From the NCBI GenBank assembly GCA_015680685.1, contig MNCI01000268.1:28424-92423 (forward strand): DNA of 64,000 bases, read 5' to 3'. Under the pieces are notes generated by a model. It ran no database searches and was not told where the DNA came from. It saw only the letters and a list, made by a program, of their open reading frames with translations. Both the position numbers and the translations under genes were made by a program. Source of the DNA: Gnetum montanum. Taxonomy: Eukaryota > Plantae > Gnetophyta. Shown piece by piece: positions 8,445-46,635 of the stretch; the first letter of the stretch is position 1; every line of letters begins with the position of its first letter.

Positions 8445-9979
8445 TGTAACAATGGAAAATGTTGGTTGTTGGAAATATTGAATGGAGTTCCGTGTACACA
8501 GTTTCAACCTCAGATCCGTGCAAGGGCTGTGCTGGAGAAGACGAATCCGAGATGCCCTGAACGATCTTGTCGATCAAACAGGGATTTACTTAATCAGTAA
8601 AATTTTGTAATAACTAGATGGCAAAATGGCGATTTCAATAAGGAGATATAATATCGTTAATCTTGAAGGTAATTGAGAGCGATGTAAACGATTCAAAGCG
8701 ATTGCAAAATCTATATAGATAGGATGCAAGAAATCGGATTTAGAGAGTGTGCAATCCCAAGATTTGGGATTTAGTTTATAAACAAAATATGTTGGATACA
8801 ATGATTACAAGCGGACTTCGGTTCAGACGAAGCACGTGCCAACAACAGGAAAGTTATTTAAAGATAAAACAAGCAAAGGTCGATCTACCTTGTTCTAGCT
8901 AATTTGGGCGCAAGGGAGTCAGACCTGAAGCAGAATATTCGTTAACTGGTTGTTTCTGATCAAAGATTCTTGCCAATCACCTTCGATGTTCTTACGATCA
9001 TTGATCCTCTTTTGCTCTCTTGTCAATCTTTGCCAAAAGTTGTCAACAATTGCCAATGAAAGAAAATTGCTCACGGAGAAAATTTGCCAATCGAGAAAGA
9101 TTTTTGCCAACCCTTTGATCCTTGTCAATTGGAGTATTTATAATGTTAGGGTTAGGAGAAAAACGTAGTTTAGATGATGCATGTCCTGAACCTGCAAAAT
9201 GTCGTTGACTTGATGTGTTCGTGTTTGAAGCTTGCGGCGCTACGCTGCATTACACTCTGAAACGTAATGTGTCGTAATCTACTTTTACTGGAGCTTTAGC
9301 AACAAATTGTTCTGCGGTTACACTGTAATACGCTAGAGAGCGTATTGCGACGTATGAACTGCTGATGCCTGAATTGTATTATCTCTATTTTTGCTTGTAT
9401 TACGTTGCATCATGCTATATTACACTGCATAGAGTAATTCAGCGTAAGATAGCGAACCTGGAAAAATTTGAAGTGTTTTCGCCACGCTTCCCTTGTTTCT
9501 GTTCATTCTTTTTGGGGTTTATTACGCTATATTGCGTAATGTAGAATAATAGGCCCTTAACTGAAAAAAGGAAAACTTGCTGAGATGTGCAACTTGTTGC
9601 AGATCCTTGCTTGAGCCTTGAGGTTTTGCTGGACCATTGAGATCTCGAATTTTGCTATCTCCGTTGTTGCGACTAGATGGACTGTCTTCTGGCATTACGC
9701 TATGTTATGCTACATTACGCTGTGTTGCGTAACGTGGCGTAATATGCTAAAGGTTAAAAATTTCGAAACATAGTTAACTTGCAAAGTTGCAGACTTACCA
9801 TTGCACACCCCTTGTCTTTGTTTTGTCCTCTCGAGTCTATTACGCTGCGTTGCATAGTGTGGCGTAACAAATCCTTAGCCGAAAAGGGAACTTGCTGAGC
9901 TGCGACTTGTCATAAATCCTTGCCTGAGTCGCAAGATTTTGCTGAACCGTTGATGCCTCGAAATTTTTATGGTGTTTCA
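8445..9979 (-). repeat. Element A 3' LTR
   Basis: Direct repeat of 24790-26324. The minus strand begins TGAAACACC immediately after the PPT. Confidence 0.95.
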
Positions 9980-9980
9980 A

Positions 9981-9992
9981 TGGCCCCTCTTT
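9981..9992 (-). other. Element A polypurine tract
   Basis: Minus strand AAAGAGGGGCCA lies next to the LTR start. The same GTCAACAAAGAGGGGCCA precedes the element B 3' LTR. Confidence 0.85.
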
Positions 9993-11169
9993 GTTGACAT
10001 TTAGAGGGCTTGCCCAAAAGATGTCGACAAAGAATACGAAACACCAAATAGGTAAAGACACCAACAGCGTCTGTCGGCAACTGCTCAAATGTTGCTCTAT
10101 CAAACTTAGAAATGCGAAGGTGGGCAGAGGAGAATAGGAGGGATCTTAAAGAAGTGAGAGGAGGGAGGTTCGAGGAAGACTCAAGCATGTGAACAGGAAA
10201 CTTTCACAAACAATTTTTTAGGCATCCTTTTGTGGGTGTATTTGCAAGAGGTTACGCTGCTATACTGCACATGAAGGGCTTGCACGAACAAGTTGTGTTA
10301 CGCCCGTATGGCCTGGATGAGTTGTTTTACATTTATTTTTCTTAGCTTTGCCCTTTTTTTTAGAGTGCAACTTACATTCCATGAGGCGAGTTACGTTACA
10401 CCAGTTCATGGAGATAATGGTGCAAAAGAATTGACTATATGCTCACATCCTGTACAAACAAAAGAAGAGGGTAAAGACAGTTGTGAGGAGAAGGAAAGGA
10501 GAAAGTGAAGTAAGGTGTCTGATGGAGGGAAAGATAGGGTTTGCACTCCTAAGTAGTCAGGCTAGTCTGAGCAGCCACCTCAGAACGCAGTGACACCTCA
10601 CCTCCTGGTGAATGCATTCTCGATCAATGCCATTGTAGCAAATAACCTGCAAAACACAACAGAGAACAGAGAGCAAAACCAATCTTCCTAATTGCTAGGG
10701 AGGCTGTTGAAACAAGTGCTATTTGAAGCGAAAAGGAGAGCATAGGCCACGAAAAAGGGACCGTAGCAAGAAGCAAGGGTTTCTATGTTGATGTCGCGAT
10801 TCATGAAGTCACCGTCGATAGCCAGATTCATCTTGCTCAAACGATTGGGCAAAGAACCAGTTAGATGAATCTGCTAAGCCAGAGTTTGGTGGCAACGACG
10901 GGTGGAGGCCACTGAGGCTATGGATGACCATAGTTTCTTTGGGACCCCAAGCGGCGAAGTTGACTCCAAGAGTTGCAACTACAGAGTGGCTATCGTAGCA
11001 ACATCTCCGAGGGGTCAGTAGTATGCCTTTCGGCATATCCGAGGAATCAGTAAGATGCCAATGGGGTAGCGGCATTGCATCTGTTCCAATGCCTTACACG
11101 TTCTATCTGGTAGGGATGCAGTGCAAAAGTGATCACGCTCGCTTGCTTCATGGATTTTCTGTTGACAGA

Positions 11170-11530
11170 TTCCAGTTTTGGGTCCTGGTTGATTGTTGTT
11201 GCTGGTTTTAAGTCTCAGCAAACTGTGGTCCTGGTTTAAAGTCTGGGCAGACTGAAGCCTGCTAGTTTTACGTCATAGTGGAAGATGGAAGAGCTAGTTT
11301 ATGGTCTCAGTAGACCATGCTGTGGGTGTCAGTTTTATGTCGTGACCCAGGGACAATTCTATGCTAGTTTAGCATCTTAGCAGACGGATGCTTACATTAC
11401 CAGTTTCACGTCATGGCGGATGGTCGAAAATTTTGCCAGTTTAGCGTCGTGGCGGATGCATGCAAGAAATGCTAGTTTTACATCATAGCGGACATGTACA
11501 ACATTGCCAGTTTTACGTCATAGCGAACAT
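11170..11530 (-). repeat. Array of about ten hairpin motifs (stem-YGNNAN-stem-AAACT) just downstream of element A pol
   Basis: Minus-strand examples: ATGGTC-TACTGA-GACCAT-AAACT, ATGTC-CGCTAT-GATGT-A-AAACT, AGTC-TGCCCA-GACT-TT-AAACC. Confidence 0.8.
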
Positions 11531-11561
11531 TTTTTACCTTGCATTTGAGCCGAGTTGACAT

Positions 11562-14500
11562 TTAGATGTGATACCGCTTCAGATACATGTGGTTCACTGG
11601 GTTTGGGTGTTCGTTGTCATTGATGTCTGCTAGCCTGAATGCTCCGTTGCCATATGCGTTGACAACCAGGAAAGGGCCTTCCCAACTTGTAGAGAATTTT
11701 CCCACTGGTTTATGGACGGCTTTGAGAACCAAGTCTCCTTTCTTAATCGGTCGCTGATGCAAGTTGTGATGATGTTTCTGTTTCTTCCTATCTTGATACC
11801 TTTCAATGGTATCAAGCGTCTGGATGCATTTCTCCTCTACTGAGTCTAAATCCACAATTTTGGACTCATTGTGTTGAGTCTTATTTATAACTGTGGAGAG
11901 GACCATCCGCAATGAAGGAATCTGCAGTTCCAGGGGCAACACTGCTTCAGATCCGTAGACTAGGTTGTAGGGTGTCCTATCGGTAACTGTTCTGCATGTC
12001 ATACGATAGGCCTATAGCACATAAAAGATTTTTTCATGCCATCGTTTTTTGTTGCTGTTGAACATCTTCTTTAGTAGATTGATAACCACCTTGTTTGTTG
12101 CTTCTGCTTAACCATTTGCTTACGGGTAATAAGGTGAGGAAAAAGATTGCTTGATACCAAGGTTATTGCAAAAAGATTTGGTTTTGATGCTACTAAATTG
12201 TGGTCCGTTGTCGGTCACAATAGTCATGGGAAGCCCAAACCTAGTTACTATATTTTCCAAGATAAAATGGCAAACCTGTTGAGATGTAATCTTTTGTAGG
12301 GGAATAGTCTTGACCCACTTCGTGAAATACTCGGTGGCAGTGATGATGAAGCTATGTCCTGCGGAAGACTTAGGCGTGATGGAACCTATGATGTCTAGTC
12401 CCCATCGTTGAAATGGCCAAGTGATCTGTGTAGTATGCAATTCAATTGGTGACACGTGTATTAGATTTGCATAACATTGACATGTGTCACATGTCTTAAC
12501 CTTGTTGAGGCAGTTTCGTTCCATGTACGACCAGTAATACCCTAAGCGTTTGATTTTAGCGGCCATGGCTCATGGGGCTATATGTCCCCCACATAGTCCT
12601 TTATGGACTTCGCTAACTATTCGTTGCGCTTGGTCATTATTAATGCAAGTTAGCAATACTCCATCAAAAGAGCGTCTACAGAGAGTACTGTCTCCAATGA
12701 TGACATATTGCCGGGCACGCTTTTGGATTGCATCTTTCTGTGTAGGTGTTAGCTCATGTGGTGGTTCGCTATGCAGAAGGTAGGCTTTAATGTTATCATA
12801 CCATTTTGGCATTCCACCTGTGCTTAGAGAAGAAATTTGCGCCGCTTGAATGATAGTCTTTGTACATTCCATCATTAAAGCGGGCCAAGTGGCAAATAAA
12901 TGTGGTGGCACATTTAAGGCCAGTGTGGCTAGTGCGTCAGCTACAGCGTTTTCATTATGTGGCACATGTTGGACATCAGTTGTCATGAATTGTTTTAGAA
13001 GATCTTTAGCCATATTGCAATAGGGCTGTAAATGTACAGCTTTACAGGCGTAGACCCCTATGATTTGATTAATGACAAGCATCGAATCACCTCGGATTAC
13101 CAGGTGTTGAACGTTGAGTTCCCTGGCTGTTAACAATCCTCTGAGGAGTCCCTCATACTCTGCCATATTATTCGTACAAGGAAATGCCAGGCAGTAAGCC
13201 AATGGATGAACATCCTCAGGGGAGAATGTAATGACAACGGCAGCATTGCCACCTCTGGTAGTTGAAGCTCCATCGAAGTATAACGTCGCTTCGAGGCTTA
13301 TCGATACAGGGCTTAAACTACGTATCTGTTCATCAGAAAACTTGGGCTATATCGCGGCTTGATTGTTAACCGTTGATGTTGCAAGCTGGTCGGCTATCGC
13401 TTAGCCTTTCGTGGAATATTGGCTAACGTAGTGCAAGTCAAATTCTACTATGATGGCTTTCCAGCGGGCTATCCTACTACTTTCGTATAAATTATTTATG
13501 ATAGCCCGCAGAATGTTATTTTTACAGATTATATTAACCTGGCTATGGAAAAGATAGTGCCTACATTTCTTGAGTGAAAATACCAATGCTAAACAGTTAC
13601 GCTCTACTTCATTGTACTATGTTTCGTACGCAAATAGAGCGTGACTTAGGTAGTAGATAGAAACTTCTAACCCGTCGTCCCTTCTTTGGCACAACAACGT
13701 AGCTATAGACACCTCTGAGCTTGCCAGGTATATGTAGAAAGGCTGATCCCTTTGTGGCGGGAAAACTGTTGGCAAATGTAACAACTCTTTCTTCAGATTG
13801 TCAAATGCACGTTGGTAGTTCTCGGTCCATTCGAAGTTAACGCCCTTCTTGAGAAAATGTTGCATAGGGCGTAACTTGTCTATTAATCTTGAGATGAACT
13901 GCTTGATAAATTGTAGCCTACCCTGCAGCCCACGTAGTTCTTTGAGGTTTGTAGGTGGTGCTAGATTACGATTGCTTTAACCTTGTCGGGGTCGACTCGG
14001 ATGCTAGTCTTTGATACCACAAACCCCAACATGCGCCTGGTTTTGACTCTGAATACGCACTTTCTTGGGTTGAGCCGTAGGTCGTGTCTGAGACATCGTT
14101 TAAGGATTAACTCTAGATCTCCTGAGTGATCTTTTGACTTTTTAGATTTGACAGGTATGTCATCTACGTAGTCGTTCAATCTCTCTAAGAGGTAATCGCT
14201 AAAGATGTATGTCATAGCGTGTTGATAAGTTGCTTCGGCGTTTTTTAACCCGAAAGGCATCATGGTGTAACAGAAAGTTCCCCAAAGGGTCATGAAAGTC
14301 GTAGTCAGTTGATGTTCTGGGTTGATACGAATTTAATTATAACCCAAAAACCCATCCATAAAGGATAGTAACGCGTGGCTAGTTGTTGTATCGATAAGTT
14401 GGTCGATACTTGGTAATGGGAAGTTGTCTTTAATCGTGGCCTTGTTCAGATTGCGGAAGTCTATATAGATGCGTATTACTCCCGTTTTCTTAGAGACAAC

Positions 14501-15048
14501 TACGATGTTCAACACCCAGTCCAAATAATCGACTGTGCAAATGAAACCAGCCTGATATAGCTTAGTGATTTTATCACGCACTGCTAGTGCGATTTCAGGC
14601 TTAATCTTCCATGCTTTCTGTTTAACCGCTTTGATATGCGGGTCTAAAATTATGTTGTGTTGTATTAGCCTTGGATCTAAACCCGACATATTTTCGTATG
14701 ACCATGCGAACACTATAATGTTATTTTGAAGTACTCAAGATATATTGCTTTGCATTTGTTGGTCAAGGAGAGAACTAACTTTCAAAGTTTTGCTTTCTCC
14801 TTTGTGTGTAACCACAGGGACATCAGTGAGGGAATCCTCGGTCACATCCCCAGCTTTTAAGTCTAGGGTTTGGGCCAAATGTTCTGGCTAGTCTAGGGAT
14901 ACTTCTGATGTTACTATGGTTGTATCACAAAGGGAAGCGTCAGTTCCTATCAGTGCATGATTGAGCTATCTAATAATTTCCCTGTATGGGCCTGTTAAGG
15001 CTAGGGGTGTGAGTAAAGTTGCGTCCATTTGCGAATTGACCTGCAAAA
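11562..15048 (-). pseudogene. pol: Element A pol (RT, RNase H, additional archaeal-type RNase H, integrase), interrupted by stops
   Basis: RT: LSFMDGFLGYN, MPFGLKNA, YVDD. aRH: YFDGAS, CTNNMAEYEGL, GDSMLVINQ, NAVADALA. Integrase: HKGLCGGH, WGLDIIG, TDNGPQF, SWEGPF. Confidence 0.93.
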
Positions 15049-15619
15049 CTGCCAAAAAGGGAGGTTGTTACATTGTTTTTTGTCAACCTGTTGAAAAGAT
15101 AGAAGGCTTTCTTGTTTTAGTGGTACGTGTTAAAGAGCTGCCAGTTTAAGGTCCTAGCGGACCGTTACCATATGCGTGATTTGTGAGAAAGCAGTAAGCC
15201 TAATTTCCTAGATGTTAGCGTAAGGCTTCTGTGAACTATGGTGGGGAGTGTAACGTGGCACGTCTATGGTGTCGAGATAGCTAATTTAGAATTTTGTGCA
15301 GATCGTAGTTAATGCGACCAGATTACGAGACGATGAGCTGTGCGTTAGTTTAGGGTCTTTTCGGACTGTAATCTATACGATATCTATGAGATTAATGTTG
15401 CGATCTTCATGCTTCATGTCACATTGACATACCTGCATTTCGAGAAAATTTAGCATTGGTCGGGCACACAACAATTAGTTTCAACCAATTCATTTATAAG
15501 TCGATGATTCATCTTTAAAGTAGATTGGAGACATTGGAAATTTGAATTAGGCTATAGCAGAAGGAAAGTGGAAGTAAGGCGTAAGCAGACGATTTTGCGA
15601 AGGTTGTTCAGTCGTGACC

Positions 15620-18600
15620 ATGGCGCCGAAGATCAAAGGCAAACATGTCAAATTGGCGAAGATTGATGAAGTGTAGGAGAGTTTGCAGTGGGTTTCAAAG
15701 GCCAGGGTTGAAACGCGGGAGGCTAGTTCACTCGCTCGGTAAGTGGCTTTTTACCCTTCTAGATGATTATTATTTCCATTGTTATGGTATTGCAATTGTA
15801 CCTATTTCGAAGATGTGTATTATGGCGGGCGTTGATACTTGGTAACGCGGGCTAAGCTATCGTAGTTTGTGCTATTACCGCTATGGCTATTGTCGGAGAC
15901 AAACCTTGCGTAGTCGCAAGGGTTAGGGCGATCTTGGGCAATATTGTGCGAACAAAATGCATAACCGGAGAAGTCTAGGTACTATACCCTTATGTAGTAT
16001 GAATAGGATTCCTTCATCTCACCCATAAATATTGCATGTTACACTAGGGTAATACGTAGTATTACTTTTATCGTCGTTGTCAGGGACAGACTTTGTGCAA
16101 TCGTAAGGGTTTGGGTGATTTTCGTAATGCATTTCTAGCGTAACCTGTAATTTTCTGGGAGTCAAGGTAATGGAAACTCTAGTGCTGCGTAATGAAAATT
16201 TATTTTTTGTGTTGCTCTTACATCGTTAGTATGTCTATATTGATGTTTCTAATAGAAGTCTGTTTCATTGTAAAGGATTACGCTAAAGCCCATCCTGATC
16301 ATCTTGGACATTGTGGGCGTTCTGTGCTGTTTACATGTCCTCGTGGCCAATGTTCCTCCTTCTCATGCTCGTGTAAAGAAGGAGGTAGTTTGGTTTCGAA
16401 GAGGTGCATGAGAGTTTCTGCAGTTTTTGTTACATAATTATAGCGTAATTATTTGGTTGCATCTGTCGGCCGAGACAATCGCCGCCATTTTAGAGATGCT
16501 ACTGGTTGGATCGACACAGAGCATCTTGACGTTTCTGGTGGACGGCTCAATCGAAACCGTGCGGGTGCAAGACCGTGAACAGAGCACTAGGGGTTTGAGG
16601 CGTTTGTCCTGGATCTGGGATATGCCCAGGTTTAATTGTTATCATGCCTACAACACTTTGTTCGTAGCTCATCATCTTATGACCTACTTCCAGAATCCAC
16701 CTGGGATTGTGTATTATGCAGGCGGGTAAGTGTTTTCACGGTGTCATAATATGCTAACCATTTGTCTAAATTTGTGACCAGTGTAAACAATTGTCTACAT
16801 TCTGTGATGTAGGTTTTTCATTAATAAGGATGGTCTCTAGGGTGATACAGATACGTTGTCTATGGCCGAAATGGCCATACAGGAGTTCACCTCTATTGGC
16901 AAGGTACGTGTTGGTGTTATGGGACAAATAGAATTGGAAATCCCACATTACCCTAACTGCTATGTCGAATTTTTCACCAAGTGCAAAAGGCTTGGATGGC
17001 TGGATAAGGAGTGGACTTTGGATCGTCCTCTCACTGTCGCAGACGTGCAGGAGAAAATCCCACCATTTCCTTCACCTTTCAAACACGGTAAATTATGCTA
17101 CGGTGGTTCATTGTACAATCTTACGGGATGGAAACAATGTGAAAAATCATTTTATTTTACTATATTGTCTAAACCCTTGTTTTATGTTTACAGTTAAGGA
17201 ATCACGGGAGATCATGGTTATGGCTTCTGGGTGTGAAACAAGCAATCTTTTGTTTTGTTATGGCGACATAAAAGAAACACAGCATTGGCTCAACCATAGT
17301 GCGGCCCCAATTGTACTAACTAATAACCTCCGAGAAGCTGGACTAATGAAGCTATTTTTGCTTGTAACCCCCAACGTCACCGCAGGTGAAATGTTGATCC
17401 TAGTTAACTCTTTTAGCGAAGAAGTCGAGCATCTTTGCATACACATGCGTAACGTATGTGTAAGTTTTGATATTGACGCTCGACTGTTCGCTGACTTTTT
17501 TGGCATTCCCTCTGATGGCCTTCCGGTAAAAGAAAAGTCAAAAAGGAGTTCTAAGCACCAGAAGGAGATAGAGGAGTGGCTAGGGGTTAACAAGGAAGTG
17601 AAAGAAATCCCTGCTGATAAAATCAAGCTGGAGGTGGCTCATACCATTTATCCCCTCTTCCGAGCTTGCGCCTTCCCCAAGTTGCTCTCCCAGGGGAGAA
17701 TCCTTACCATAGAGTAGGCTCGGATCATGCTGGAGGTTAGGGAGGAGGGAACGTGGTATAATTGGGCTAGCTATTTCGTTGAAGGCCTGTAGGCTGAAAT
17801 GGTCAAGCTTCGCAAGAAGCTTGAGTCCCACTTCAACTTGGATTTCACCTTCTTTATAGCTTGCTTTTGACATTTTGCTGAATTCCTGGTGGTTTAGAGG
17901 GATGGAATCTGGGTGCAGCAGGATTGTAACCAGATTTCCAAACCTTGGATTTCTTAGGTTTTCAGCACTACCCGGTCGCAAGATCCCCCCGAAGGCATTG
18001 GGGATTCACTTTCACTTATGACTAAGAGATTGGTGATGCCTTGTACGCGGGGCCAAGACAGCGTGGGTGGAGCGCTCCCTTCTTACACCGGTAGTGTGTC
18101 GAGGGGGAAACTCCTTGCAGTAGGAATAGTGGATTCATCAATCTAACGGAAAAACCATCTTCCGGCCATGGAGTCCGCTGGTCCGACTGATGTAGAGAGA
18201 AAGAGGTTGCAAATTAAGTTTCACAGGAACGATCCCCCAACTAGTAAGTAAAGAGATGCGTAATTAGTTTATATATTTGTTACGTTGTGTATAGGCGTGG
18301 CGTCGCTTAGTGTTTGTAAGTGTCTCAATTAACTATTTTTTAGCAGACAAAGGGAAGAATGTAGAGGAGTTAACCCCCAAAATAGGGGTAATAGTTATAC
18401 GACGTGAAGGAGGGGCCCCAATTTTGGAAAAGGAGGCCCTTGTTAGTAATGCAAGTGGCACACAGGTTCCTATGCACGAAGAAGAGATGAAGGTAAGGGA
18501 CGTCGAAGTCCTTTCGAATGAGGTGGAAAAAGGGAAGCAGTTTGTCGTTGGTGAGTTTGACTTTTTCTTAGAGGGCAGCCTCATGTTACTACCATTCAGG

Positions 18601-20104
18601 GTTTTGTTGGGTTGATTTTTGCATTATCGTAATGTCTCAATTTTCCTTTGTGTCTATCACACTATGTCTAACCCGTTTTTGTTTGCGTAATAGGTACTTC
18701 TGATGCTGGCGTCGTGCCCTTGTCAGCGGCACCCACTCAGCATTGGGGTGGGGCCCCTGATAAATTTGCCTTTATGGAAGGCATTACGAAGGATATGATC
18801 AGCCGCCTAGAGCGAATCGATCCTAAGATTGGTACGTGAGTGATTGTTGGTATTACGAAGTTATATCATCTTTGTTGCATCTCACTATTATTTTTATGTT
18901 ATAGGATCTCGCCTCAGATGGGATCCCAAAGAGACCATTGACTTGGACACCGGCCCTGAACCCTCACCGGAGTTGATCGAAGTGCCATGTAGCCTTTACG
19001 ACAAAATGCGTAAATGTGCGTTACACTCGACTCGCTCTTTATGGGAGTGCCAGAACATCAACGAAGCTCTTTGGAAGAGGTTGCAGAAAGCAGAAAAGGA
19101 GAAGACATTCGTAACCGATAGGGTTGAGGACCTAGAGTCCTAAAATGAATTTTTGCTAGCTCGAGATACTAATGATGAGAATTGGCGAATAATTGTAATT
19201 GACTACACCCACTATTGGACGGTCTTCAGAAACAATGTCCAAGCCAGTCATGAACTTATTGAGCAACGGATGCAAATGAATCTCCTAGCCCAGAAGAACT
19301 AAGACTGGAAGGATTACAATGCAATGGTCCAAGAATGGGGGCAGACACAGAAAGATCATAAGCACGTGTATAAGTGAGAATGTGCTGCCTACTACCAACA
19401 TCACAGGAATTCTGCTATTGAAGCACGGTCCCTTTGACTATTTCTTGATGTCATCGGTGCTTCTGGAGTATACGAAAAGTTTCAGGAGCAAGTGATAGTA
19501 AGTGCCTCCCCAGAGAGGGAAATAACCCTCCCTGGCAGGGAGACCACTGTCCCTTCCTTCTTCCCTGAACCACCCAAATGGACTCCTGTGGAGAAGGGGA
19601 AGGTTAAAGCTGGAATTGATCTAGGAGATTACATTTGATCTGAGCTTACCGAGGACGAGATCATGCAACGCCTATGGGTTGGTTTGGAACAAATTCCTTT
19701 CGCGGCTGACGTGGGATCATCACAGGTAAGTTGTAGGACTATTGCATTTTTGTTATGCGTAGTCTCGATGGCAATGCTAACGTGTGCATCATGTTAAACC
19801 GTAGGATCGGAATGAGGAGGATCCTCATGAGGATGAGTGTAATGGAAATGATGGTTCGCGCGAAGAGGGTCTTAATGAGGAGTGTAATTTAGATGATGGT
19901 CCTCGCGAAGAAGGTCTTTACGAGGAGGAGCGTAATGAAGATGATCAAACTCGCGGCGAGTAGTCCCATGAGGAAGAGCCTTGCAGAGAGGATTGCCCTC
20001 ATGAAGAGACCCCACAAGAAGAAGGTCCCTACGAGGATGATTTTCTTGAGGCAGAGGTGGAGTTGGATGACATAGGTGGAAGTATTAGTAAAGGTGACGT
20101 GTAA
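15620..20104 (+). pseudogene. Element A antisense multi-exon accessory gene (NIF/FCP1-like + PMD-like + coiled coil + acidic tail); predicted exons 15620-15738, 16276-16725, 16813-17087, 17194-18243, 18347-18550, 18694-18831, 18905-19725, 19805-20104
   Basis: Starts MAPKIKGK and has GT-AG introns with compatible phases. Peptide homology to the element B copy runs throughout, e.g. YPLFRACAFPK/YPLFRARVFPK, YNWA/YNWA, AEFLVV/AEFLVV, LRWDPKET/LRWDPSET. Several in-frame stops are present. Confidence 0.8.
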
Positions 20105-20224
20105 CGTGGCTATATTGGTCAACATTTTATTATATTGGAATGGAGTAAAAGACAACGTGTTTTTGCCCATGTAGGCTAGAGTAAATATCTTATCTTTCAT
20201 GAAGTGGAACATATCGTTTTTTGG

Positions 20225-21056
20225 NNNNNNNNNNNNNNNNNNNNNNNNNNNNNNNNNNNNNNNNNNNNNNNNNNNNNNNNNNNNNNNNNNNNNNNNNNNN
20301 NNNNNNNNNNNNNNNNNNNNNNNNNNNNNNNNNNNNNNNNNNNNNNNNNNNNNNNNNNNNNNNNNNNNNNNNNNNNNNNNNNNNNNNNNNNNNNNNNNNN
20401 NNNNNNNNNNNNNNNNNNNNNNNNNNNNNNNNNNNNNNNNNNNNNNNNNNNNNNNNNNNNNNNNNNNNNNNNNNNNNNNNNNNNNNNNNNNNNNNNNNNN
20501 NNNNNNNNNNNNNNNNNNNNNNNNNNNNNNNNNNNNNNNNNNNNNNNNNNNNNNNNNNNNNNNNNNNNNNNNNNNNNNNNNNNNNNNNNNNNNNNNNNNN
20601 NNNNNNNNNNNNNNNNNNNNNNNNNNNNNNNNNNNNNNNNNNNNNNNNNNNNNNNNNNNNNNNNNNNNNNNNNNNNNNNNNNNNNNNNNNNNNNNNNNNN
20701 NNNNNNNNNNNNNNNNNNNNNNNNNNNNNNNNNNNNNNNNNNNNNNNNNNNNNNNNNNNNNNNNNNNNNNNNNNNNNNNNNNNNNNNNNNNNNNNNNNNN
20801 NNNNNNNNNNNNNNNNNNNNNNNNNNNNNNNNNNNNNNNNNNNNNNNNNNNNNNNNNNNNNNNNNNNNNNNNNNNNNNNNNNNNNNNNNNNNNNNNNNNN
20901 NNNNNNNNNNNNNNNNNNNNNNNNNNNNNNNNNNNNNNNNNNNNNNNNNNNNNNNNNNNNNNNNNNNNNNNNNNNNNNNNNNNNNNNNNNNNNNNNNNNN
21001 NNNNNNNNNNNNNNNNNNNNNNNNNNNNNNNNNNNNNNNNNNNNNNNNNNNNNNNN
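20225..21056. other. Assembly gap (N run) inside element A
   Basis: Run of N. ORFs crossing it are artefacts. Confidence 0.99.
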
Positions 21057-24000
21057 AGGGCAAATGTATTTCTTGGTGAATGGGTGATGAGACGGCCCTT
21101 AATTAAGCTAACCAAGACCTCCCTAAGATTAGGTTGAAGCCAGGCATCTCCTCGATGATGATGAACACTGCGTTTGTGGGGAATTGATCCCCTGCTACAA
21201 AGTTGATGTGTACCATTCCCTTAACTTGCACTCTTGCCCTGTTAAATGACTTCAAACACGACGTTGTCATGGGATTGATCTGGTCGAGCAAACCCAGTTT
21301 GTCCACTATAGGGAATGGAATGACATTAGAAGCGGCCCTGTCATCCACCTGTACTCTCCAGATTCTGTACTGGCTGACCCGGATAGTGATGAACATGGAC
21401 ATTGTTGTCACTTGACATTTTTCTGGGTCATCCTTAATGGATTCGTCATGAAATGTCAGTTGGGAGGATCGTATTTGTTTAGCAATGTGAGAAAGCATAA
21501 TCGAATGGATTGCTTCTTCATCTGCTGGCAAGTTTTCATCCACCAGTTCGGATGTTAGCATGCGAACCATGGCTTCGTGATGCTTTTGGGATGTCATCAA
21601 CAAGTCGTACAGGCTCATTATTATATTTTTCTATTTGAGAGCCTGCTTGACTTGTGTAAAAGCATCAAGGAGATCATGTCCACGATCTGGTTGCTTGTTA
21701 CCCTTCTCTTCTTCCATTCATCATAGGAGATGGATCTCTCGGGGCGAAATAGTTTCTGGTCGAGGATTGTATTTTCTTGGGTAGGGAGAAGGTGGCTATG
21801 TTTGCGTAATGTTGCCTTTTTTAGAAGAAGGTGGATCCAAGGACGCCTAGGTGAGGGGTGTAGGGCTAGAGAATCCTAGCGTAAGGCGGTCCTTGGCTGC
21901 GTCAGCTATCATGCGCCCTTCTCCTTTCCTATTAGGTTTTGATTGGGGCGTTGACTTAGATGGTTGCCCCTACGTAACAGGAACAACTGATGGCTTTGGC
22001 ACCCTGATGACAAAGGGTGCCTTAGGTGTGGACGTGGGCTGGGCCGTGGCTTTACCAATAGTAGGCTGTGGGACGACGGTAGGAGACGGGACTCGGAGGG
22101 CAAAAGGTTGTCGCTGAACCACACCTGTTGATGTTGATGGGCTTGTCGTTTGAGATGAGTGAGGAGGTACATGCAGGACAAAGGGCTACTTTAGCTATCC
22201 CTGACCATTGCCTTCCGTACCTACCACATTGATAGTGTACCCTACGTTATTAGCATTTAACTGGTCTTGGTACACATGCATGGACTGGTTTTCGGGACGG
22301 ACTGGACTATTGCTATCTAGGATCAATTTACCTTAATCGATCATGCGTTGAATGTCATCTTTCAACGCCTAGCAGTAATCCGTGTCGTGACCACACAGCT
22401 GGTGATAGTTATAGAAGCGGTCCAGCCTAAAGTTTTTGGGAACTGGTGGTTCGTTAGGCATGGCCAAGGAGGGGTTCTTAAGCAACTCACAGTGCCGTCT
22501 GTGGCATTTCAGACCCTCCTCAGATACCTTCTTATGTTGGATGTGCCCAGTTCCTAGTAGTTGCTTTAGAAATTTTGAAGGCTTTATAGGTAGAGCCGTG
22601 TATTTTGAATGGTCTTTATGCTCAAAATTAGGCTTTGGCTATGGAGGTGCTTCAGGGGCGGAAGGAGTTTGTTGGTCGACACTGTTTGAGCTAGTTGTGG
22701 GCTCAGCAGGCTCCGTGGATACTTTTTTGTTGTTGTTTTTCCTCTTGGCCCCCTTGGCAATCGCTGCTACTATCGTTGGCGTAGCTTTGCCTTTGTCCTT
22801 ACCCTTGCTGTGGGAATTTTTGTAGACCACATACGCTGGATCTTTGCTAGCCTCAGTTGCATCTTGGATGCTCTTAGTCTACGCGAAGGCTTGGTTGAGG
22901 GAGTGGGGAGCGAGGTAATATAACTTAGACTTGATAAAGTCGTTAACTACCTCCTTGAAAATTGCCAACAGATGGGCCTCCGCGATGGGTTCACGGATTT
23001 TGTTCAAGGTGGCGCTCCACCACTGTATAAACTTTTGAATCGACTTGAGTGGGTCTTGCTTAACTCCCATGAGCTGGTCCAGCGTGACTTCTGGTTTTAG
23101 GTTGTACTTGAAACGAGTCACGAACTGAGTTAACAGCTCCTCCAAAGTTGAGATGAAAGCACGTGGGAGTGCTCGATACCAGTCTAAAGCTTTACTCGTC
23201 AGGGACATAGCAAAGACACGGATGATAGTATGTGGCCATTGTTTCAATAAGAACGACTTTGACTTGAAAGTAACTAAATGGGCATTGGGATCGCCTTCCT
23301 CATTGGATTTTGTAAAATGGGGGAGTGGCATCCTATGAGGTAACGATAAGACAGGCACTATTGGACTAATAGGATCATCATAGTAAAAATTCATGACTTG
23401 TATTGTGTTAGAACCAGTAGCCTTAAGGCGCTTAACTTCCTCTGTAAGGGTCTGAATAAGCTGGAAGGCTTGATCCAGACCCGTAGACGAAAAGGTCATT
23501 TGTGGAATGGCAGGAGGAGCCACGCTGGGTGGCGGAATAGGGGCAACAACTTGGCCGATGGGCGATGCTATCAGAATTGTCCCTACAGGCAGTGCCACTT
23601 GTGGCATCCACCACCCAGTAGGTGACGCGGATGGAGCGATTGCCGTTGGGTGTGCCATTGGACACATTGTTTGCGTGGCTGGGGGCATAGGCAATGATCC
23701 TGTAGCAGGGTTTAGTGCCTGTGGAACCTGGTTTTGATGATGGGGGAGATGGGACATCTACGTAGGATGCGTAATGAGGGACATGTTTGGAACCCACCAT
23801 GCTATAGTGGCAGGTCCTATCGTGTGAGTCAGGATGAATGTAGGCGCTGTATGTAATTGCGAAGTAGGTATCACATGTACATACGGTGACATGGGCGTAG
23901 GTGCATGATGAGATGGATTAGCTAACTGCACCTGTTAAGGAATGATTTGTGATGGGACACCACCCGGGAGGGTAGTCGAAGAGAGAAAATGTAACTGGGG

Positions 24001-24339
24001 CGAGTGCGGGACTCGGTTAGTATGAGATAATGTCAAGGGCGTGGTGACCATGAAAAATGGATTTACGCGAGATGTCATGGAGGGAGGGGCCATAGCAAAA
24101 TCAGCATGATTGCCTCCCTCAGAATGGGAATCTAGATCGTCCTGCCCATCGTGAAGCGTTTCATCATGGAACAACTCCTCTCGTTGTTCTATCGATGTCC
24201 TAGCCATCAGCATTTGATCTAGGATCCATTGTTGTTGATTTGTGAGGGGTACAGTGGCATTTGGCGAAGGAATAAATTCCTTCCCATTGTAGTATAAGAA
24301 CTCATATTCTCGTTTCTTTTCGAGTTCTTGTGGATACAT
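21057..24339 (-). pseudogene. gag: Element A gag-protease, degenerate
   Basis: Gag: GDPNAHL..F, ALDWYRALP, QFVTRFKYN and a YH..GH..DYC knuckle-like motif. Protease: RVQVDDRAASNV and FNLILGRSWL. Confidence 0.9.
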
Positions 24340-24765
24340 AGGCAGATTTACCGCAAGTTTAGCATAGAGGAAATTGTAATGTTCCCTGCACTGAGCATGT
24401 CTCTTAGGCTCCTTGTTTTGGAGCCTGAGGGATCAACGTGGTTGCACCGGACTGTCGACCACAGGAGGTGTAACTTGCAGAGTCCAAGGATTCTCGAAGT
24501 TACCAGTGTCAACAACAGTGGTTGATGTAGCTATTCTCTATGTGGTTCGAGAGTAATGACGAAAAGGATAAAGATCACAAGGGCAAAGGCAAAGTAAGGT
24601 GAAAATTAGGCTTTCTACCCTGTAGGATTCCAAAGGAATCCTCAAAGCAACCGATCTACACCACACAATTTTGTAAACAACCATGGAGGTATTACGTTTA
24701 CGTTGATCGATAATGGGTACAGATAGCTTACAGGACTACCAGTAAAATGTGGATCAGAGGTTCAG

Positions 24766-24783
24766 GCCCTCCTTCTAGCGACA
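24766..24783 (-). other. Element A primer binding site (tRNA-Asn-like)
   Basis: Minus strand TGTCGCTAGAAGGAGGGC lies just inside the 5' LTR. It is complementary to the plant tRNA-Asn(GUU) 3' end CCCUCCUUCUAGCGCCA (tRNA sequence recalled, not searched). Confidence 0.75.
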
Positions 24784-24789
24784 GAAAAC

Positions 24790-26324
24790 TGTAACAACGG
24801 AGAACATCAATCGTTGGAAATACTGAACGGAGTTCTGTGTACACAGTTCCAACCCTGGATCCGTGCGAGGGCCGTGCTGGAGAAGACAAATCTGAGGTGC
24901 CTTGAACGGTCTTGTCGATCAGACAGGGACTTACTTAATCAGTAAAATTTTGTAATAACTAGATGGAAAAATGATGATTTCAATAAGGAGATATAATATT
25001 GTTAATCTCGAAGGTAATTGAGAGTGATGTAAACGATTCAAAGCGATTGCAAAATCTATATAGATAGGATGCAAGAAACCAGATTTAAAGAGTGTGCAAT
25101 CCCGAGATCTGGGATTTAGTTTATAAACAAAATATGTTGGATACAATGATTACAGGTGGACTTCGGTTTAGATGAAGCACGTGCTAATAACAGGAAAGTT
25201 ATTTAAAGATAAAACAAGCAAAGGTCGATCTACCTTGTTCTAGCCAATCTGGGCATAAGGGAGTCAAACCTGAAGCAGAATATCCGTTAACTGGCTATTT
25301 CTGATCAAAGATTCTTGCCAATCACCTTCGATGTTCTTACAATCGTTGATCCTCTTTTGCTCTCTTGTCAATCTTTGCCAAAAGTTGTCAACAATTGCCA
25401 ATGAAAGAAAATTGCTCACGGAGAAAATTTGCTAATCGAGAAAGATTTTTGCCAACCCTTTGATCCTTGTCAACTAGAGTATTTAAAATTTTAGGGTCAG
25501 GAGAAAAATGTGGTTTAGATGACGCGTGTTCTGAACCTGCAAAATGCCGTTGACTTGATGTGTTCATGTTTGAAGCTTGCGGTGCTATGTTGCATTACGC
25601 TTTGAAGCGTAATGTGTCATAATCTACTTTTGCTGGAGCTTTAGCAACAAACTGTTCTGCAGTTATGCTGTAATATACTAGAGAGCGTATTGTGACGTAT
25701 GAGCTGCTGATGCCTGAATTGTATTATCTCTGTTGTTGCTTGTATTATGCTGCATCATGCTACATTACGGTGCATAGCGTAATTCAGCGTAAGATAGTGA
25801 ACCTGCAAAATGTTGAAGTGTTGTTGCTGTGCTTCCCTTGTTTTTGTTCTATCTTTCTGGGATTTATTACACTACACTGTGTAATGTAGCGTAATAGGCC
25901 CTTAGCCAAAAAAAGGAAAACTTGCTGAGATGTGCGACTTGTTGTAGATCCTTGCTTGAGCCTTGAGGTTTTGCTAGATCATTGAGGTCTCAAATTTTGC
26001 TATCTCCGTTGTTGTGACTAGATGGATTGTCTTATGGCATTACGCTGCGTTACACTACATTATGCTGTGTTGCATAATGCGGTGTAATATGCTAAAAGTT
26101 AAAATTTTCGAAACATAGTTAACTTGCATAGTTGGAGACTTACCATTGTGCACCCCTTGTCTTTGTTCTGTCCTCTAGAGTCTATTACACTGCACTGCAT
26201 AGTGTGGTGTAACAGACCCTTAGCTGAAAAGGGAACTTGCTGAATCACGACTTGTTGTAAATCCTTGCATGAGTCGCAAGATTTTGCTAAACCGTTGAGG
26301 CCTCAAAATTTTCATAGTGTTTCA
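24790..26324 (-). repeat. Element A 5' LTR
   Basis: Direct repeat of 8445-9979, with the PBS on the inner side and the TSD on the outer side. Confidence 0.95.
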
Positions 26325-26627: not shown

Positions 26628-26963
26628 AGTGTGATCATTTGGTAACCCAATAGTGGTTTCACTTGATCCACTTAATAGTGAACTCACTTGGTAATCCCAA
26701 TAATGATTACACGAGCCCAAGGCGTGAACTACAAGCTAGGAATAGATACTTATTGCTCTAGGCTAGATTAGATTCATTTACCATTTTTCTTAAACTTAGA
26801 ACCATTTTCACACTTTACTGTCATAGCTAGGAGTTATGGTCTACCAAAATCAACCTATCATACACCTCACTAAGAGCTAAACCAAACACATTGATTATAC
26901 TAGCTCCACGTGGGAAGACAATGACTCTGAACTTTAATCAATTACTAGCATAATCACATTGCC
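26628..26963 (+). repeat. Left part of an Athila-like LTR copy interrupted by the caulimovirid insertion
   Basis: Collinear 336-bp similarity to 51523-51858. Confidence 0.85.
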
Positions 26964-29900
26964 ATACCATCCCTTGCTTGGATCTGACATTGGCAAGAGT
27001 TGGTATAGCAATGTGATATCTTTTTACCATCTATGTATTTAGTACTGAAATCAAAATTTTCTAGAAAAAGTGCTCATCTAATGAGCCTAGTACAGGAAAC
27101 TTTATTAAGAGCTCTAGAACATAGGTATTTATCAAAGTGTTTGAGATCAATTTTGATAATAAAATGAACATTTTGTAAAAATAATCTAAATTTCTCAATA
27201 CCCTTAACAATAGCTAGTAATTCTCTATGGGTACTGTGATAATTTCGTTGTGCAGCAGAAAATTTACCTGAAGCATACCTGCAAATTCTGATTACATTAT
27301 TCTTTTGTTCTTTCAAGGCAGCACCCTAGAATTCTGATGAAGTGTCTATTTCTAGAATTAATGCGCCATTTGTAGGTAGCTGTAATCTTGGGAGGTTTTT
27401 GCATTGATGCTTAGTTTGAACTCTGGTTTCTATATGTTATTTTATCCGAGGAGGATTCTGACTAAGTTGTTCATTTAGTAGTTTTCTATCCTTGGCAAGG
27501 TTTTTGTAAAACCTTGATACATAACTTATGCATCCTAAAAATTATTGTAATTGGGTTTTATCCTTTATTTCATCAGGAAATTTTCTTAAGGATTCAAGGA
27601 TGTTGTCTTGCAATGTTATAGTCCCTTGGGTAATCTGTAAGTCTAAGAATTCTATTGAGTTTTTTGCAAGTTGCATCTTTGTGGGAGAAAGTACTAGTCC
27701 ATTTTCATCTACTATTTTTCTGAATATTTCTAAATGTTCTAGCTATTGCTTTGGATTTTTACTCATAACTAACATATCATCAATGTAAATCATAATAAAG
27801 GAAAATCTAGTAAAGACTTGATCCATATAGTTTTGAAAGATAAAAGGTGCAGTTTTTATGTTGAAAGGTAAGATTGTTCATTCATATAGTTCTTCGGATA
27901 TGGTGAAGGTAGTTTTCTAATGATCTTGAGGTTCTACTTGTATCTACCAGAAACCAAATTTTAAATCAAATTTGAATAAATATTTGTATGGAGGAATCTT
28001 TGGAACAAATCATCTTTATTGCGTATAGGATGCTGGACAGGTTTTACAAGGTCATTTAAGGGTTTATAATTGACCACTAATCTTTTTTTTTTACCTTAGA
28101 CCTGTTCTAATCTCTTATTAACATAAAAGGTTACATAAGCAAACATGCTGGTACTTGATTGTATTAGCTTTTTATCTAAGAGAGTCTCAATCTCTTCATC
28201 ACATTCTTTCTTTAAGCTTGGTGGCATGCATATATGGTGAGCTTTTGCTTTTATCTTAATGTTGTCTTTGAACTCAATTCTACACTAGTGTCCCTTTTTA
28301 TGCCTAAAAGCAGTGGGATCATCATTGGCTAATTTTAAGAGATCTTCCTATATTTTGGTAAACTTATTTTCTATTTTCTTAATGTTATTCACTATCCATG
28401 GGGTTTTAATGGGTTTCCTTTGTTCTCATGCTTGGAACCTACTTTTGTAGAGGTTTTTCCTAGAGAATCTTTCTCTTGATAGTAATAAGTAAGATCTCCC
28501 TATCGTATATAGTTCTAGGCCTTGGAGATTATTAGTTCCTATGAAAAGATCATAAGATCTTATCTCATAGTGACAAACCTTTAATTGTAAGGTTTTACCT
28601 TGGGATGTTCTAACAGGGATTATGAATTTATATTTCAAGGCTACCTTTTAGGTATTGAGCATTACATATGTTTTTTCTTTTTTCTTCCAAAAGTAAAAAG
28701 GTATTATATTCCGTTGAGCAAGTGAAACTTCAGCATTGCTATCTATAAGGGCATCTATGGGGTATGGCTTATAACCTTCAAATTTCATAAAGAATGTGCA
28801 AATAGGAAGATTAATTATTCTATTGTTATTATTTACTATATTAATAGGCATAGCCTGTGTCTCTTCTTGATAGTATTTTCTCTGGTAGCTTTCTTCTATT
28901 TTCTAAAGCTCGTAGAGTTCTTGAGAAGTTTGTTGTATGTATTTCTTTAATTGTGTTATCTGTTGGGTTCACATAAGAGACTCATCTAATGAAGGTATTC
29001 TTTGGGTCTATTTCTCACTTTCAGATGATTCTTCTATATTATGTTCTAAGGTTGTTTCTGATTCTTTCTGCATCTCAAGATACTTGAACCAACTTTCTTC
29101 TATCAAGAATTGATGTTCTTCTAGTTCCTGCTTCTTTTTAGTTATTTTACGCTTTAAAGACATTATTTTAGAGACTTGATCTTATTGTTTTTATAATCTT
29201 ACTACTTCTTGTTTTATTATTTTGTAGGTTAGGTCTCTTTTTATAGGATCTACATCAATTGTATCTAGAGGTCTCTTAGATAGATCTGGTTTCTCTTCTC
29301 TACTATATCTAGACGAAGTTTTGCATGTCTAGATCTAGGGGTTTCTAGGTGTCTTAAAGGTTGATGTATGTTCATGTTGTAGTACAAGACATTATCATCA
29401 AAATCATCAAAATTTCCTACATCTTCCCCCATTTTCAAAAGAGGTAGCCATTGGATTAGAGTCACTGACATAATAATTTGAATATTCATTGGATTCAATG
29501 TAAATGTCACCAAGAGAAAAAGGTGTAGAGGGATCAAGAGTAAAATCATAGTATTACTCAAAAAGATTATAATGTTCTATGAAATTCACTTACCTAGAAT
29601 GCTTGTCTTTATGTGGACATTCATGTGCAAAGTGATTTCCTTTACAAACAAAACATTTAACATCTTTCTTTGGGAGTTTATGTTATCAACATTTAAACAT
29701 TCCTCAAAAGATTTAGTTGGAGAGGACTTTTGTTGCCATCATTTCTTTGAATAATTACTACATTTATGCTTGTGAGAATAACACTAAGATTTTGATGTGT
29801 TTTCAAATTGATTTTTAGGACATATGTCATTCCAGAAAGACTTTCCAAGTTTATGACCTATTCGTTTCATGAGAGATTGAGCTCTCATATCATGACATAG

Positions 29901-30751
29901 ATCTCTATTTATGTATATTATTAATTTTCTAATTGCACTAAAACTCATATAATCTATACCTCTATCTAGCATTTTTATTTCTGCTTGATACATCTCACAG
30001 AAAGGTTGTGGCATCGATCTTGAAAGATGTTCTTTAGCAGATTGATCATGAGTTAATTTACCACAATAATACCATTCTTCCATCGTATCTAAATATGTAG
30101 AGACATTTTGTATTTTATGTAATCGAGCTTTAAAGAACATATCTCTATATGGATCAATATGTTCATTTTTACTACCTATAAATTCTTTAGTTATTGCATT
30201 TATAAATAAAATTGTAGGGCTAGTTAGCAACTTCTTTTTGATGTATGGATCAATATAGTTCCACCATCTTTTCAAATTGCTAACAAAATTGAATACACAA
30301 TTTTGGATAGCATGCTTAGAAATTTTTTTGTCAAGAATAACTTGACAGTCAATGAAACCATTTATCCAATCTAAGACAACTTGTCATTATGGTATAGATA
30401 ATTTATCCATACTAAATTTACAATCTTTTTCACTAATCATTCTAGAAGAGACTTGTGGATATACCTCAGGTGCTTGGGTGTATAGTTAAGGATTTCTTAG
30501 AAGTTCTTCCTCATTTGAATCAAGCTTGGTTTTCTGGTCATCAAAATTTATAGCCATTGCTTGAGAAGATCCTTCATTAGCATTGATTTTGGATTTTCCT
30601 TTATCCCTTATTGTGGATTTGTTTCTACATTTTGGTAAAGGAGAATCAACATTTGTGCCATATTTAGGAATTCTTGGATCAAGGAGTTGTACTGTTGTTT
30701 TAGGGACCCATTGTTTTTAGAGATTTTTAACTCATTCTTTAGTTTTTAGAG
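26964..30751 (-). mobile_element. Endogenous caulimovirid (pararetrovirus), 3' part: capsid, aspartic protease, RT, RNase H; degenerate
   Basis: CP-like 29784-30275 with zinc knuckle KCFVCKGNHFAHECP (~29614-29658). Protease ALIDSNAEVSL (28648-28851) and YDLFIGTNNL. RT IYIDDML (~27770-27790). RNase H ICRYASGKFSAAQRNYHSTHRELLAIVKGIEKF (27074-27316). No integrase. Confidence 0.9.
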
Positions 30752-32260: not shown

Positions 32261-32265
32261 GAAAT

Positions 32266-32283
32266 TGGCACTAGAAGGAGGGC
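32266..32283 (+). other. Element B primer binding site (tRNA-Asn-like)
   Basis: TGGCACTAGAAGGAGGGC begins 5 nt after the LTR end and is the same type as in element A. Confidence 0.8.
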
Positions 32284-32961
32284 TAACTGCTTAAAACTTA
32301 CTGTAATTCAGAAACTCTCAACGTCTACACTGTTGAGTATACGAGATCCCTGTCCATAGAACTCCCAGCATCTACGCTACTGAATACAAGCTGACCCTGT
32401 CTACAAAATCCCCAGCGTCTACGCTATTGAGTTTAGGAGCTCCCGACGTCTACACTACTGACTATACGTTGACTCTGTCTGCAAAATCCTCAGCATCTAT
32501 GCTGCTGAGTTTATGCCGACTGTCTGAAAACTTCCTAGCTTCTACACTGTCGAGCATCTACACTGCTGAGTTTACACCTGTCTGCAAAATTCCCAGCGTC
32601 TACACCATTCCATTTACGCCACACGCTCTATGCCGTAGATGCGTCTATGCTGTTCAGCATACGCTGCACACTATACGCTCTAGACTTTGTCTATGCCATT
32701 TCGTTTACGCTACATGCCGTACACTGTAGACTTTGCTTATGCTGCTGCATTTACGCTGCATTCTCTACGCCTTAGACTTCGCCTACGTTGCTGCGTTTAC
32801 ACTGCACTCTCTACGTTGTAGACTTTGTCTACGCTGCACTCTCTACGCTATAGACTTTGTCTACGCTGTGCACTCTACACTGTAGACCTTGTCTACGCTG
32901 CTGACGTACTAGTATACCAGTTTCATACCCTTTTATTGTATTATATTCTCAATTGTTCATC

Positions 32962-37145: not shown

Positions 37146-37156
37146 TAAACAACAAG

Positions 37157-42590: not shown

Positions 42591-42626
42591 CACTTCAAAT
42601 GCACAATGCTCACAAATGACACCCTT

Positions 42627-46614: not shown

Positions 46615-46635
46615 GTACAAGCTCAGGTACGTTTC

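Follow-up and report, generated by a model that had tools for sequence, protein, structure and literature searches.

The 64,000-nucleotide stretch of Gnetum montanum DNA analysed here (assembly GCA_015680685.1, contig MNCI01000268.1, positions 28,424 to 92,423; hereafter the window, with positions counted from its first letter) is plant-like nuclear DNA holding two complete long terminal repeat (LTR) retrotransposons, A and B. At the same place in each, an accessory gene runs antisense through a gap of ~6 kb between gag-protease and the part of pol that encodes reverse transcriptase (RT), RNase H (RH), archaeal-type RNase H (aRH) and integrase (INT). We confirmed that exon 2 of this gene encodes a NIF/FCP-SCP-type HAD domain in both elements, with most of its catalytic residues replaced. 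The reading we favour, with slightly better than even confidence, is that the domain is a captured, likely dead protein-binding module within a regulator of the element's own expression.

The A exon (16276-16725, plus strand) reads PILIILDIVGVL, VWFRRGA, one in-frame stop (16409-16411) and EFLQFLLHNYSVIIW, followed further on by LRRLSWIW, YHAYNTLFV and FQNPPG. Its counterpart in B (41410-40962, minus strand) reads PFLLVVELVGVL and VWFREGACEFLTFILDRFKVVL, a stop (41235-41233) and Ser, and, after a frameshift just past the stop, RPLARVW, YLNNTLFL and FQNPLG. An earlier note on this DNA had quoted peptides of both copies, which were found where it placed them, and had proposed a NIF/FCP1-SCP HAD fold for them, and this proposal held. 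With the stop read as X, the A exon matched a single one of 24,736 Pfam families, NIF (PF03031), at E = 7.8e-4 and 19.6 bits, a profile comparison that named the family and fell short of its curated gathering cut-off of 21.8. Among 177,635 PDB sequences the sole match at E ≤ 10 was UBLCP1 (3SHQ; E = 0.11). Six proteins were found at E ≤ 0.001 among 1.84 billion representatives; five were NIF proteins (four with DxN at motif I, one with DxS), the best of them from Sphagnum. The top library match, P0003, is a repetitive bacterial adhesin-like protein aligned over 14 short stretches and was dropped as a repeat artefact.

Profiles of cellular relatives also picked out the two exons. A profile of 14 cellular NIF domains, six rows of which came from proteins chosen by similarity to A, was run against the six-frame window (642 pieces) and scored 74.9 bits for A and 17.7 for the first half of B, with all other pieces at 2.1 bits or less, the second half of B (1.1) included. 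A profile of seven second-round cellular NIF proteins, not fully independent in that its source search alignment contained element rows, gave 53.1 and 18.9 bits for A and the first half of B, and 1,000 shuffles reached at most 1.2. Word-seeded protein searches with the A exon gave 587 and 19 candidates and no matches. An alignment-based search retrieved 11 proteins, none from a retrotransposon judging by names and Pfam. In metagenomes, scanning for the A exon gave 126 pattern matches, and scanning for its Sphagnum relative, with the aim of setting intron positions beside those of a host gene, gave 594; neither confirmed a locus.

The structure model of exon 2 (17-row alignment; predicted local distance difference test score, pLDDT, 75.4) is predicted to show a HAD Rossmann core with an FCP/SCP-type beta insertion after motif I. 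Foldseek ranked CTDNEP1, SCP1-3, Tim50, Fcp1 and UBLCP1 first (best E = 2.5e-4; two matches at E ≤ 0.001), so that FCP/SCP members filled all top rows for a model made on a NIF alignment. VIA-align gave Z scores of 10.5 for SCP1 (root-mean-square deviation 3.7, 125 aligned), 10.0 for a phosphoglucomutase-like HAD protein, 9.8 for UBLCP1 and 9.6 for CTDNEP1, which are tied within 1. Exons 2 and 3 together had been put forward as the domain. Exon 2 stands, since the NIF match spans 16283-16711, inside that exon only, and exon 3 drops out, with no detected homology to cellular NIF C-termini (hhalign probability 0.2%; exon 4 control 0.1%).

Active FCP/SCP phosphatases have DxDx(T/V) at motif I, where A has DIVGV (DIVG at 16307-16318) and B has ELVGV. 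A keeps the nucleophile Asp, B has Glu in its place, and the motif I+2 residue is Val in both. In the motif II region of A (WLH, 16454-16462) the motif residue is Leu, compared with Ser in B, and position 16458 varies among contigs. The Lys of HAD motif III, present in 14/14 cellular alignment rows, is Arg in A (16598-16600) and in B. The Asp-Asp pair of motif IV, which serves in metal binding, is AH in A (region VAHH, 16664-16675) and AA in B; the cellular rows have the first Asp in all 14 cases and the second in 12. The replacement of motif I and of the Asp pair in both copies was thus correctly described in the earlier note, and most contigs agree with A.

Where contigs of three organisms (3,326, 2,608 and 2,667) cover the A exon, 31 places differ from A in half the depth or more, a place being counted if any one run shows this. 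Motifs I and IV and the Lys position are free of such majority differences, and the motif II position has one. Two lie in the exon 2 stop codon, so this stop is not general. A family majority with intact catalytic Asp residues was looked for in these contigs, and motifs I and IV agree with A. These comparisons support the loss of catalytic residues as a trait of the lineage and not as decay of copies A and B; decay after insertion was rejected as the cause of the Asp loss, which is common to A, B and most contigs. The same data bear on whether the domain could still be an enzyme that works by another chemistry or on another substrate, for example a metal-free or small-molecule phosphatase. The nucleophile Asp kept in A would suit such an enzyme, and activity is known from some phosphatases whose motifs are non-canonical (PMC13216928). 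We nevertheless judge it very unlikely, as the nucleophile is replaced by Glu in B, both copies lack the second Asp/Asn of motif I, the Lys and both motif IV Asp residues, and most related contigs match A at the catalytic places.

The nearest sequence relatives of the domain are DxN-type NIF proteins (LDxNG, WSS, LKEL, NTLLxDD, NP), namely a two-domain protein of Sphagnum, a protein of Ceratodon and unnamed ones. The Sphagnum CAK9217852.1 cluster and Ceratodon M758_8G145700 are 25-35% identical to the element domain and have in common with it the elements LxLD-x-x-G-x-L, R-x-x-x-x-EF, L-x-x-x-W, NTL and NP. They differ in having Asn, WSS, Lys and DD where the element has Val, W-x-H, Arg and AH/AA, and the element domain is carried by a retrotransposon and fused to other domains, with a C-terminal part without detected homology. 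Judged by sequence, the element domain is a derivative and not a regular member of the DxN-type subfamily, to which it is nearest. Because these relatives are DxN-type, the acid/base Asp was probably already gone before capture, and part of the catalytic loss is probably older than the capture itself. The "decayed" motifs of the earlier note therefore hold as a loss at the level of the lineage, and not as one that took place wholly in the element. Fungal DXNXT NIF members are classed as pseudophosphatases without an assigned role in a 2026 survey (PMC13216928). Two unnamed NIF proteins, P0005 and P0029, have DxS/DxT and DH replacing DxN and DD, further degenerate members outside the element. 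A mitochondrial Tim50 origin, suggested by the ELVG of B, was rejected, as Tim50 ranks far below UBLCP1 and SCP1 and the matches are DxN-type; the "TIM50" UniRef label on one member of the Sphagnum cluster was regarded as an automatic name and not as a sign of Tim50 origin.

UBLCP1 (3SHQ), SCP1-3/CTDSP, CTDNEP1, Fcp1 and Tim50 have the same HAD/FCP-SCP fold as the element domain, which differs from them in lacking DxDx(T/V) and the mapped pocket residues for the C-terminal domain (CTD) of RNA polymerase II, at 11-20% structural identity. It had been suggested that the domain acts on the polymerase as a decoy: bound to phospho-CTD, the dead domain would either protect it or compete against the CTD phosphatases of the host, boosting transcription of the element. 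SCP1, SCP2, SCP3 and Fcp1 are indeed among the top Foldseek and VIA rows, and with a basic residue at the Lys position and the motif II Ser of B some phosphate affinity may remain. These rows, though, merely reflect which family members have solved structures, and by sequence the DxN-type proteins and, among solved structures, UBLCP1 are nearest. The proline-binding pocket of SCP1 is formed by Phe106, Val118, Leu155, Tyr158 and Arg178 (PMC7281111); counted from motif anchors, Phe106, Leu155 and Tyr158 correspond to Val, Ser and Thr in A, and Val118 and Arg178 are not mappable, so all three mappable pocket residues are absent. Nor is the donor subfamily one of CTD phosphatases, and UBLCP1 is a phosphatase of the proteasome (PMC5451543). 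The link to the polymerase was not upheld by these comparisons, and a CTD decoy seems improbable.

Over 486 aligned codons of the accessory gene, identity between A and B by codon position is 0.52/0.63/0.29; in the first half of the NIF exon it is 0.61/0.75/0.27, and in RT 0.77/0.86/0.38. At the amino acid level 34-41% of the NIF domain, 38% of exon 4 and 54-72% of pol are conserved. Since third positions are saturated and blastn found no DNA match between A and B in the accessory region, it is the protein and not the DNA that is conserved, and the codon-position identities show purifying selection on the predicted gene. The majority differences among contigs divide into 19 of 31 that resemble deamination in A, spread 9/5/5 over the codon positions, and 12 others that are distributed 1/3/8 (p = 0.019). 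The gene is an abundant family trait: contigs over 5.8 kb of A came to 32,244 and 36,532 in two DNA runs, totals that are not copy numbers, with 30/30 bins covered, and the A region or a small share of it was present in 9 of the 21 runs listed (three studies, five organism labels).

If the gene were a neutral relic (a decaying host gene fragment or nested insertion, or a stretch relevant only as antisense RNA), stops in both copies and the lack of spliced RNA among the joints listed would be expected, and both were seen. Against this, identity is 0.63 at second positions compared with 0.29 at third positions, the intron phases are conserved, and the gene sits at one and the same place in both elements, whose RTs are only 72% identical and whose DNA does not match in this region. 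Eight of the 12 majority differences that are not decay-like lie on third positions, and the stops date from after insertion because pol has stops too. We consider this explanation largely refuted, and the least probable of those weighed here.

The accessory gene has at least five predicted exons, and its first three introns are GT-AG with phases 2, 2 and 1 in both A and B. Predicted exon 1 of A (15620-15738, plus) has an ATG, one stop and a phase-2 GT donor in frame with exon 2; that of B (42223-42365, minus) has the same phase-2 GT donor and a start that is not fixed. The segments 16276-17087 in A and 41410-40608 in B are exactly two GT-AG-bounded exons each, with matching phases. The second of these, exon 3 (A 16813-17087, plus, one stop; B 40608-40876, minus), is conserved at 27% amino acid identity, with a score of 85 against a shuffled maximum of 41. 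Exon 4 (A 17194-18243, plus; B 39472-40518, minus) encodes a conserved domain of ~280 amino acids, 38% identical between the copies and without an assigned family; the decayed copies used as queries gave no Pfam or PDB match, and the structure model failed (pLDDT 30.6). It may resemble the PMD (PF10536)/Transposase_28 (PF04195) class of domains found in extra open reading frames (eORFs), a likeness for which Pfam, PDB and folding gave no match. The late exon (A 18905-19725, plus; B 37987-38771, minus) is helical and coiled-coil-like, 35% identical by tblastx, and followed in A by acidic low-complexity sequence; the protein also has acidic linkers. Only weak coiled-coil-type Pfam matches below the cut-off were found for this exon, and heptad scoring was weak and not used. 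In one RNA run, 21 molecules start at 19299 inside it and may be copies of one molecule.

The accessory gene is integral to the element, because the target-site duplications are perfect and the gene has the same place in both elements. The description of the domain as retrotransposon-borne was correct, as it lies inside complete elements with LTRs and 5-bp target-site duplications. We rejected the idea that the gap stems from a second transposon nested in the element, as there are no terminal repeats and both elements have the same gene. On the pol side of the gap, pol of A (from 15040, minus) and of B (from 43142, plus) start at a candidate splice acceptor, a pyrimidine-rich AG followed by a Met-Asp reading frame, with an in-frame ATG 12 nt on in A and 11 nt on in B. 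With these features at both pol starts, pol is likely translated from a spliced RNA, as in Ogre, and this RNA may be one of its own, in place of a gag-pol fusion. The motif GGCCTTAAACT occurs three times within 37342-37411, just past the B gag-protease stop, and four times within 42877-43027, ahead of B pol. A variant of it precedes A pol at 15145, and when that non-coding stretch is compared between the two elements no other DNA match scores as well (E = 0.011). It is possible that this recurring motif is a cis-signal at both ends of the gag-pol gap.

On the favoured reading, that of a captured and likely dead docking module, a host DxN-type NIF gene would have been taken up by the element. 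The accessory gene would have its own antisense promoter at the pol end of the gap, as reported for Grande gene23, and the introns would survive reverse transcription because the gene is antisense to the genomic RNA, which is the other strand. Without the motif IV carboxylates the domain would neither bind Mg2+ nor carry out phospho-Asp chemistry. It may have been retained as a docking surface, fused to the conserved helical domain and the coiled-coil-like region in the layout of the PMD-CC and Tr28-CC proteins that Tat eORFs encode (PMC4408406). By recruiting or sequestering a host factor, the domain would then help to keep the element transcribed; the likeliest candidate for this factor is not the CTD but something that partners the DxN-type protein of the host. 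A role in anti-silencing or transcription is plausible by analogy, as antisense accessory genes are reported to have their own promoter and a nuclear product and are proposed regulators (PMC7264820), and PMD proteins of the host act in the regulation of genes and transposable elements together with phosphatases of the PP7 type, as partners or as fusions (PMC7156037).

The fold may instead be a structural passenger that only folds, spaces or oligomerises, binding no host factor and leaving the work (particle assembly, nuclear import or integration targeting) to the downstream domains. All catalytic features are eroded, and conservation of the NIF domain (34-41%) is not above that of the downstream domain (38%) and is below that of pol (54-72%), as this would predict. 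Yet the former active-site face (W-F-R, NTLF, FQNP) is kept despite saturated third positions. Accessory proteins of related Tat elements do without a domain of this kind (PMC4408406), and the NIF domain would therefore be an addition kept by selection. We think a passenger role rather unlikely. More tentative than the docking module, and of rather low probability, is a bolder reading in which A and B represent an undescribed Tat lineage whose Ogre-type gag-pol intron became a 6-kb cargo bay for an intron-rich antisense gene; its PMD-like DNA/chromatin domain, fused to a captured HAD pseudophosphatase, would mimic the PMD-phosphatase anti-silencing module of the host and hijack the partners of its DxN-type NIF proteins, so that the element stays transcribed. 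If true, a plant retroelement would for the first time be seen to use a pseudophosphatase effector, and this would offer a way into the role of DxN-type NIF proteins.

Several points weigh against the docking module as we read it. The Pfam score is below its cut-off, as given above, and the exon 2 model is not independent because it was built on an alignment of NIF proteins. The contig comparison detects only differences in at least half of the depth, in contigs at least 80% alike, and a minority subfamily with the catalytic Asp would escape it. Degenerate motifs are also not the same as inactivity, as human TIMM50 is reported to be active (PMC8346121, PMC13216928). In two RNA runs there was no RNA-supported joint of the gene among the 15 joints listed (78 more were unlisted), and raw RNA reads on element A numbered 110 of 12.6 million and 250 of 12.9 million, were diverged, and included one per run at ≥95%. 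The accessory copies of A and B are both disrupted by stops, and B by a frameshift as well. The comparison covers two full elements, and we infer both the donor and the direction of transfer. Finally, the PMD-PP7 analogy is a lead only, because exon 4 has no assigned family.

Element A (8445-26324, minus) has a 3' LTR at 8445-9979 with TG..CA ends and a 5' LTR at 24790-26324, followed by a primer-binding-site-like sequence common to A and B. Its LTRs are 89.8% alike (Kimura distance 0.112), and a perfect 5-bp target-site duplication, GTCAT, stands outside both. Its pol (11565-15040, minus; Pfam RVT_1, RT_RNaseH_2, RVT_3 and rve) is interrupted by stops, and its gag-protease region (21059-24432, minus; Retrotrans_gag, E = 1e-4) reaches at its 3' end into an assembly gap at 20225-21056. 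Element B (30752-49438, plus) has its 5' LTR at 30752-32260, with TG..CA ends, and its 3' LTR at 47936-49438, just downstream of a polypurine tract; these are 89.2% alike (distance 0.074), and the perfect 5-bp duplication outside them is TAGAG. Its gag-protease region lies at 33115-37145 (plus, terminal stop 37143-37145) and pol at 43142-46614 (plus; RT, RNase H, archaeal-type RNase H, integrase). By Pfam, the domain order in both is gag, protease region, RT, RNase H, archaeal-type RNase H and integrase, with RVT_3 between RNase H and integrase (E = 1e-17 in A, 1.6e-11 in B). An extra RNase H at this place is the defining trait of Ogre/Retand-like Tat elements (PMC6317226), and A and B have the Tat-clade traits of TG..CA LTRs, a target-site duplication, the order RT-RH-INT and aRH. 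A and B are Tat-type Ty3/gypsy elements, assigned by domain order and aRH. At amino acid identities of 72% in RT, 70% in integrase and 57% in the protease region, and 0.36-0.44 at third codon positions, they are distant from each other by sequence. REXdb includes a lineage named Tatius (PMC13233458), which could cover them.

Other features of the window were seen alongside. A conserved stretch, Y-E-x-x-Y-x-x-G-x-E-F-I-P-S-P, opens gag in A (23935-24432, minus) and B (33115-33786, plus); it has no Pfam match, and a long Pro/Gln-rich region lies downstream. Degenerate TACGCT-rich repeat arrays occur in intron 1 of the B accessory gene (41539-41963), in the 5' leader of B (32300-32900) and in its LTRs (30980-31570). 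Element B is flanked by caulimovirid-like remnants at 29787-30383 and 50297-50659 (minus), with a coat-like match at E = 0.029 and a movement protein match at E = 2.8e-12, and by a repeat at 26628-26963 and 51523-51858; its insertion site was apparently an endogenous pararetrovirus-like region. An older third Ty3/gypsy-like remnant at 52967-63082 has pieces of RT, RNase H and integrase and repeats ~66% alike, and is distant from A and B. A host gene or pseudogene with introns at 6089-7042 (plus), BMT5-like (rRNA uridine-N3 methyltransferase, PF10354), lies 1.4 kb from element A.

In the open literature searched, with subscription papers outside it, we found neither a NIF/FCP1-like domain in a retrotransposon nor an antisense gene in a gag-pol gap. 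NIF is not among the domains named in a screen of 121 angiosperm genomes with 15 frequent non-canonical domains (PMC9289625). The terms NIF, FCP1 and phosphatase are absent from the supplement text of PMC6317226 (17,418 characters), whose large table of eORF domains is perhaps elsewhere. The eORFs of Tat elements are described as 5' of gag or 3' of pol (PMC6317226, PMC4408406, PMC7264820), and one survey counted only open reading frames of at least 250 codons up- or downstream of the polyprotein (PMC6317226); intron-containing antisense genes in the gag-pol gap escape surveys of this kind. According to a review, most extra genes of plant Tat elements lack a recognisable cellular relative. The gene described here offers an identifiable donor family, catalytic loss under continued selection and a position absent from the surveys consulted, and its function becomes testable through a search for what partners a defined fold. 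It also points to DxN-type NIF proteins as a little-studied host subfamily that a very abundant element found worth copying.

Among known elements, Ogre likewise has aRH between RH and INT and a gag-protease set apart from RT-RH-INT by a non-coding stretch (PMC6317226), in line with the separate gag-protease and RT-RH-aRH-INT reading frames of A and B (in B, a stop at 37143-37145 and pol from 43142). This spacer is an intron in pea and Medicago Ogre and averages 274 bp in Ogre (PMC6317226), compared with the ~6 kb of A and B that holds an antisense multi-exon gene, and the eORFs of Ogre are 5' in sense or 3' in antisense (PMC4408406). Retand, Grande and RIRE2 (aORF-3R; PMD-CC or Tr28-CC) resemble A and B in that most copies carry an antisense accessory gene whose C-terminal part is coiled-coil-like (PMC7264820, PMC4408406). 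Their antisense frames lie between pol and the 3' LTR, rather than between protease and RT, and are described without an identifiable cellular enzyme fold (PMC7264820, PMC4408406), whereas the A/B gene has introns and a NIF-like start. On the host side, MAIN/MAIL1-PP7L and the PMD-PP7 fusion MAIL3 of Arabidopsis also join a transposon-linked domain to a phosphatase-fold domain (PMC7156037) and are a possible functional analogue of the element protein; they differ in being host-encoded and of PPP and not HAD fold, and the PMD identity of the element's second domain is a lead only. Tim50 provides a precedent for a motif-less family member serving as a receptor (PMC8346121). A parallel in kind is the orchid Ty3/gypsy AlkB/2-ODD RNA demethylase, where a Tat-related element fixed a host enzyme domain as an extra open reading frame, though the orchid domain kept its cofactor residues and is active (PMC9289625). 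A Tat accessory gene with a captured host domain is thus already known as a kind, and what appears to be new in A and B is the NIF domain and its position in the gag-pol gap.

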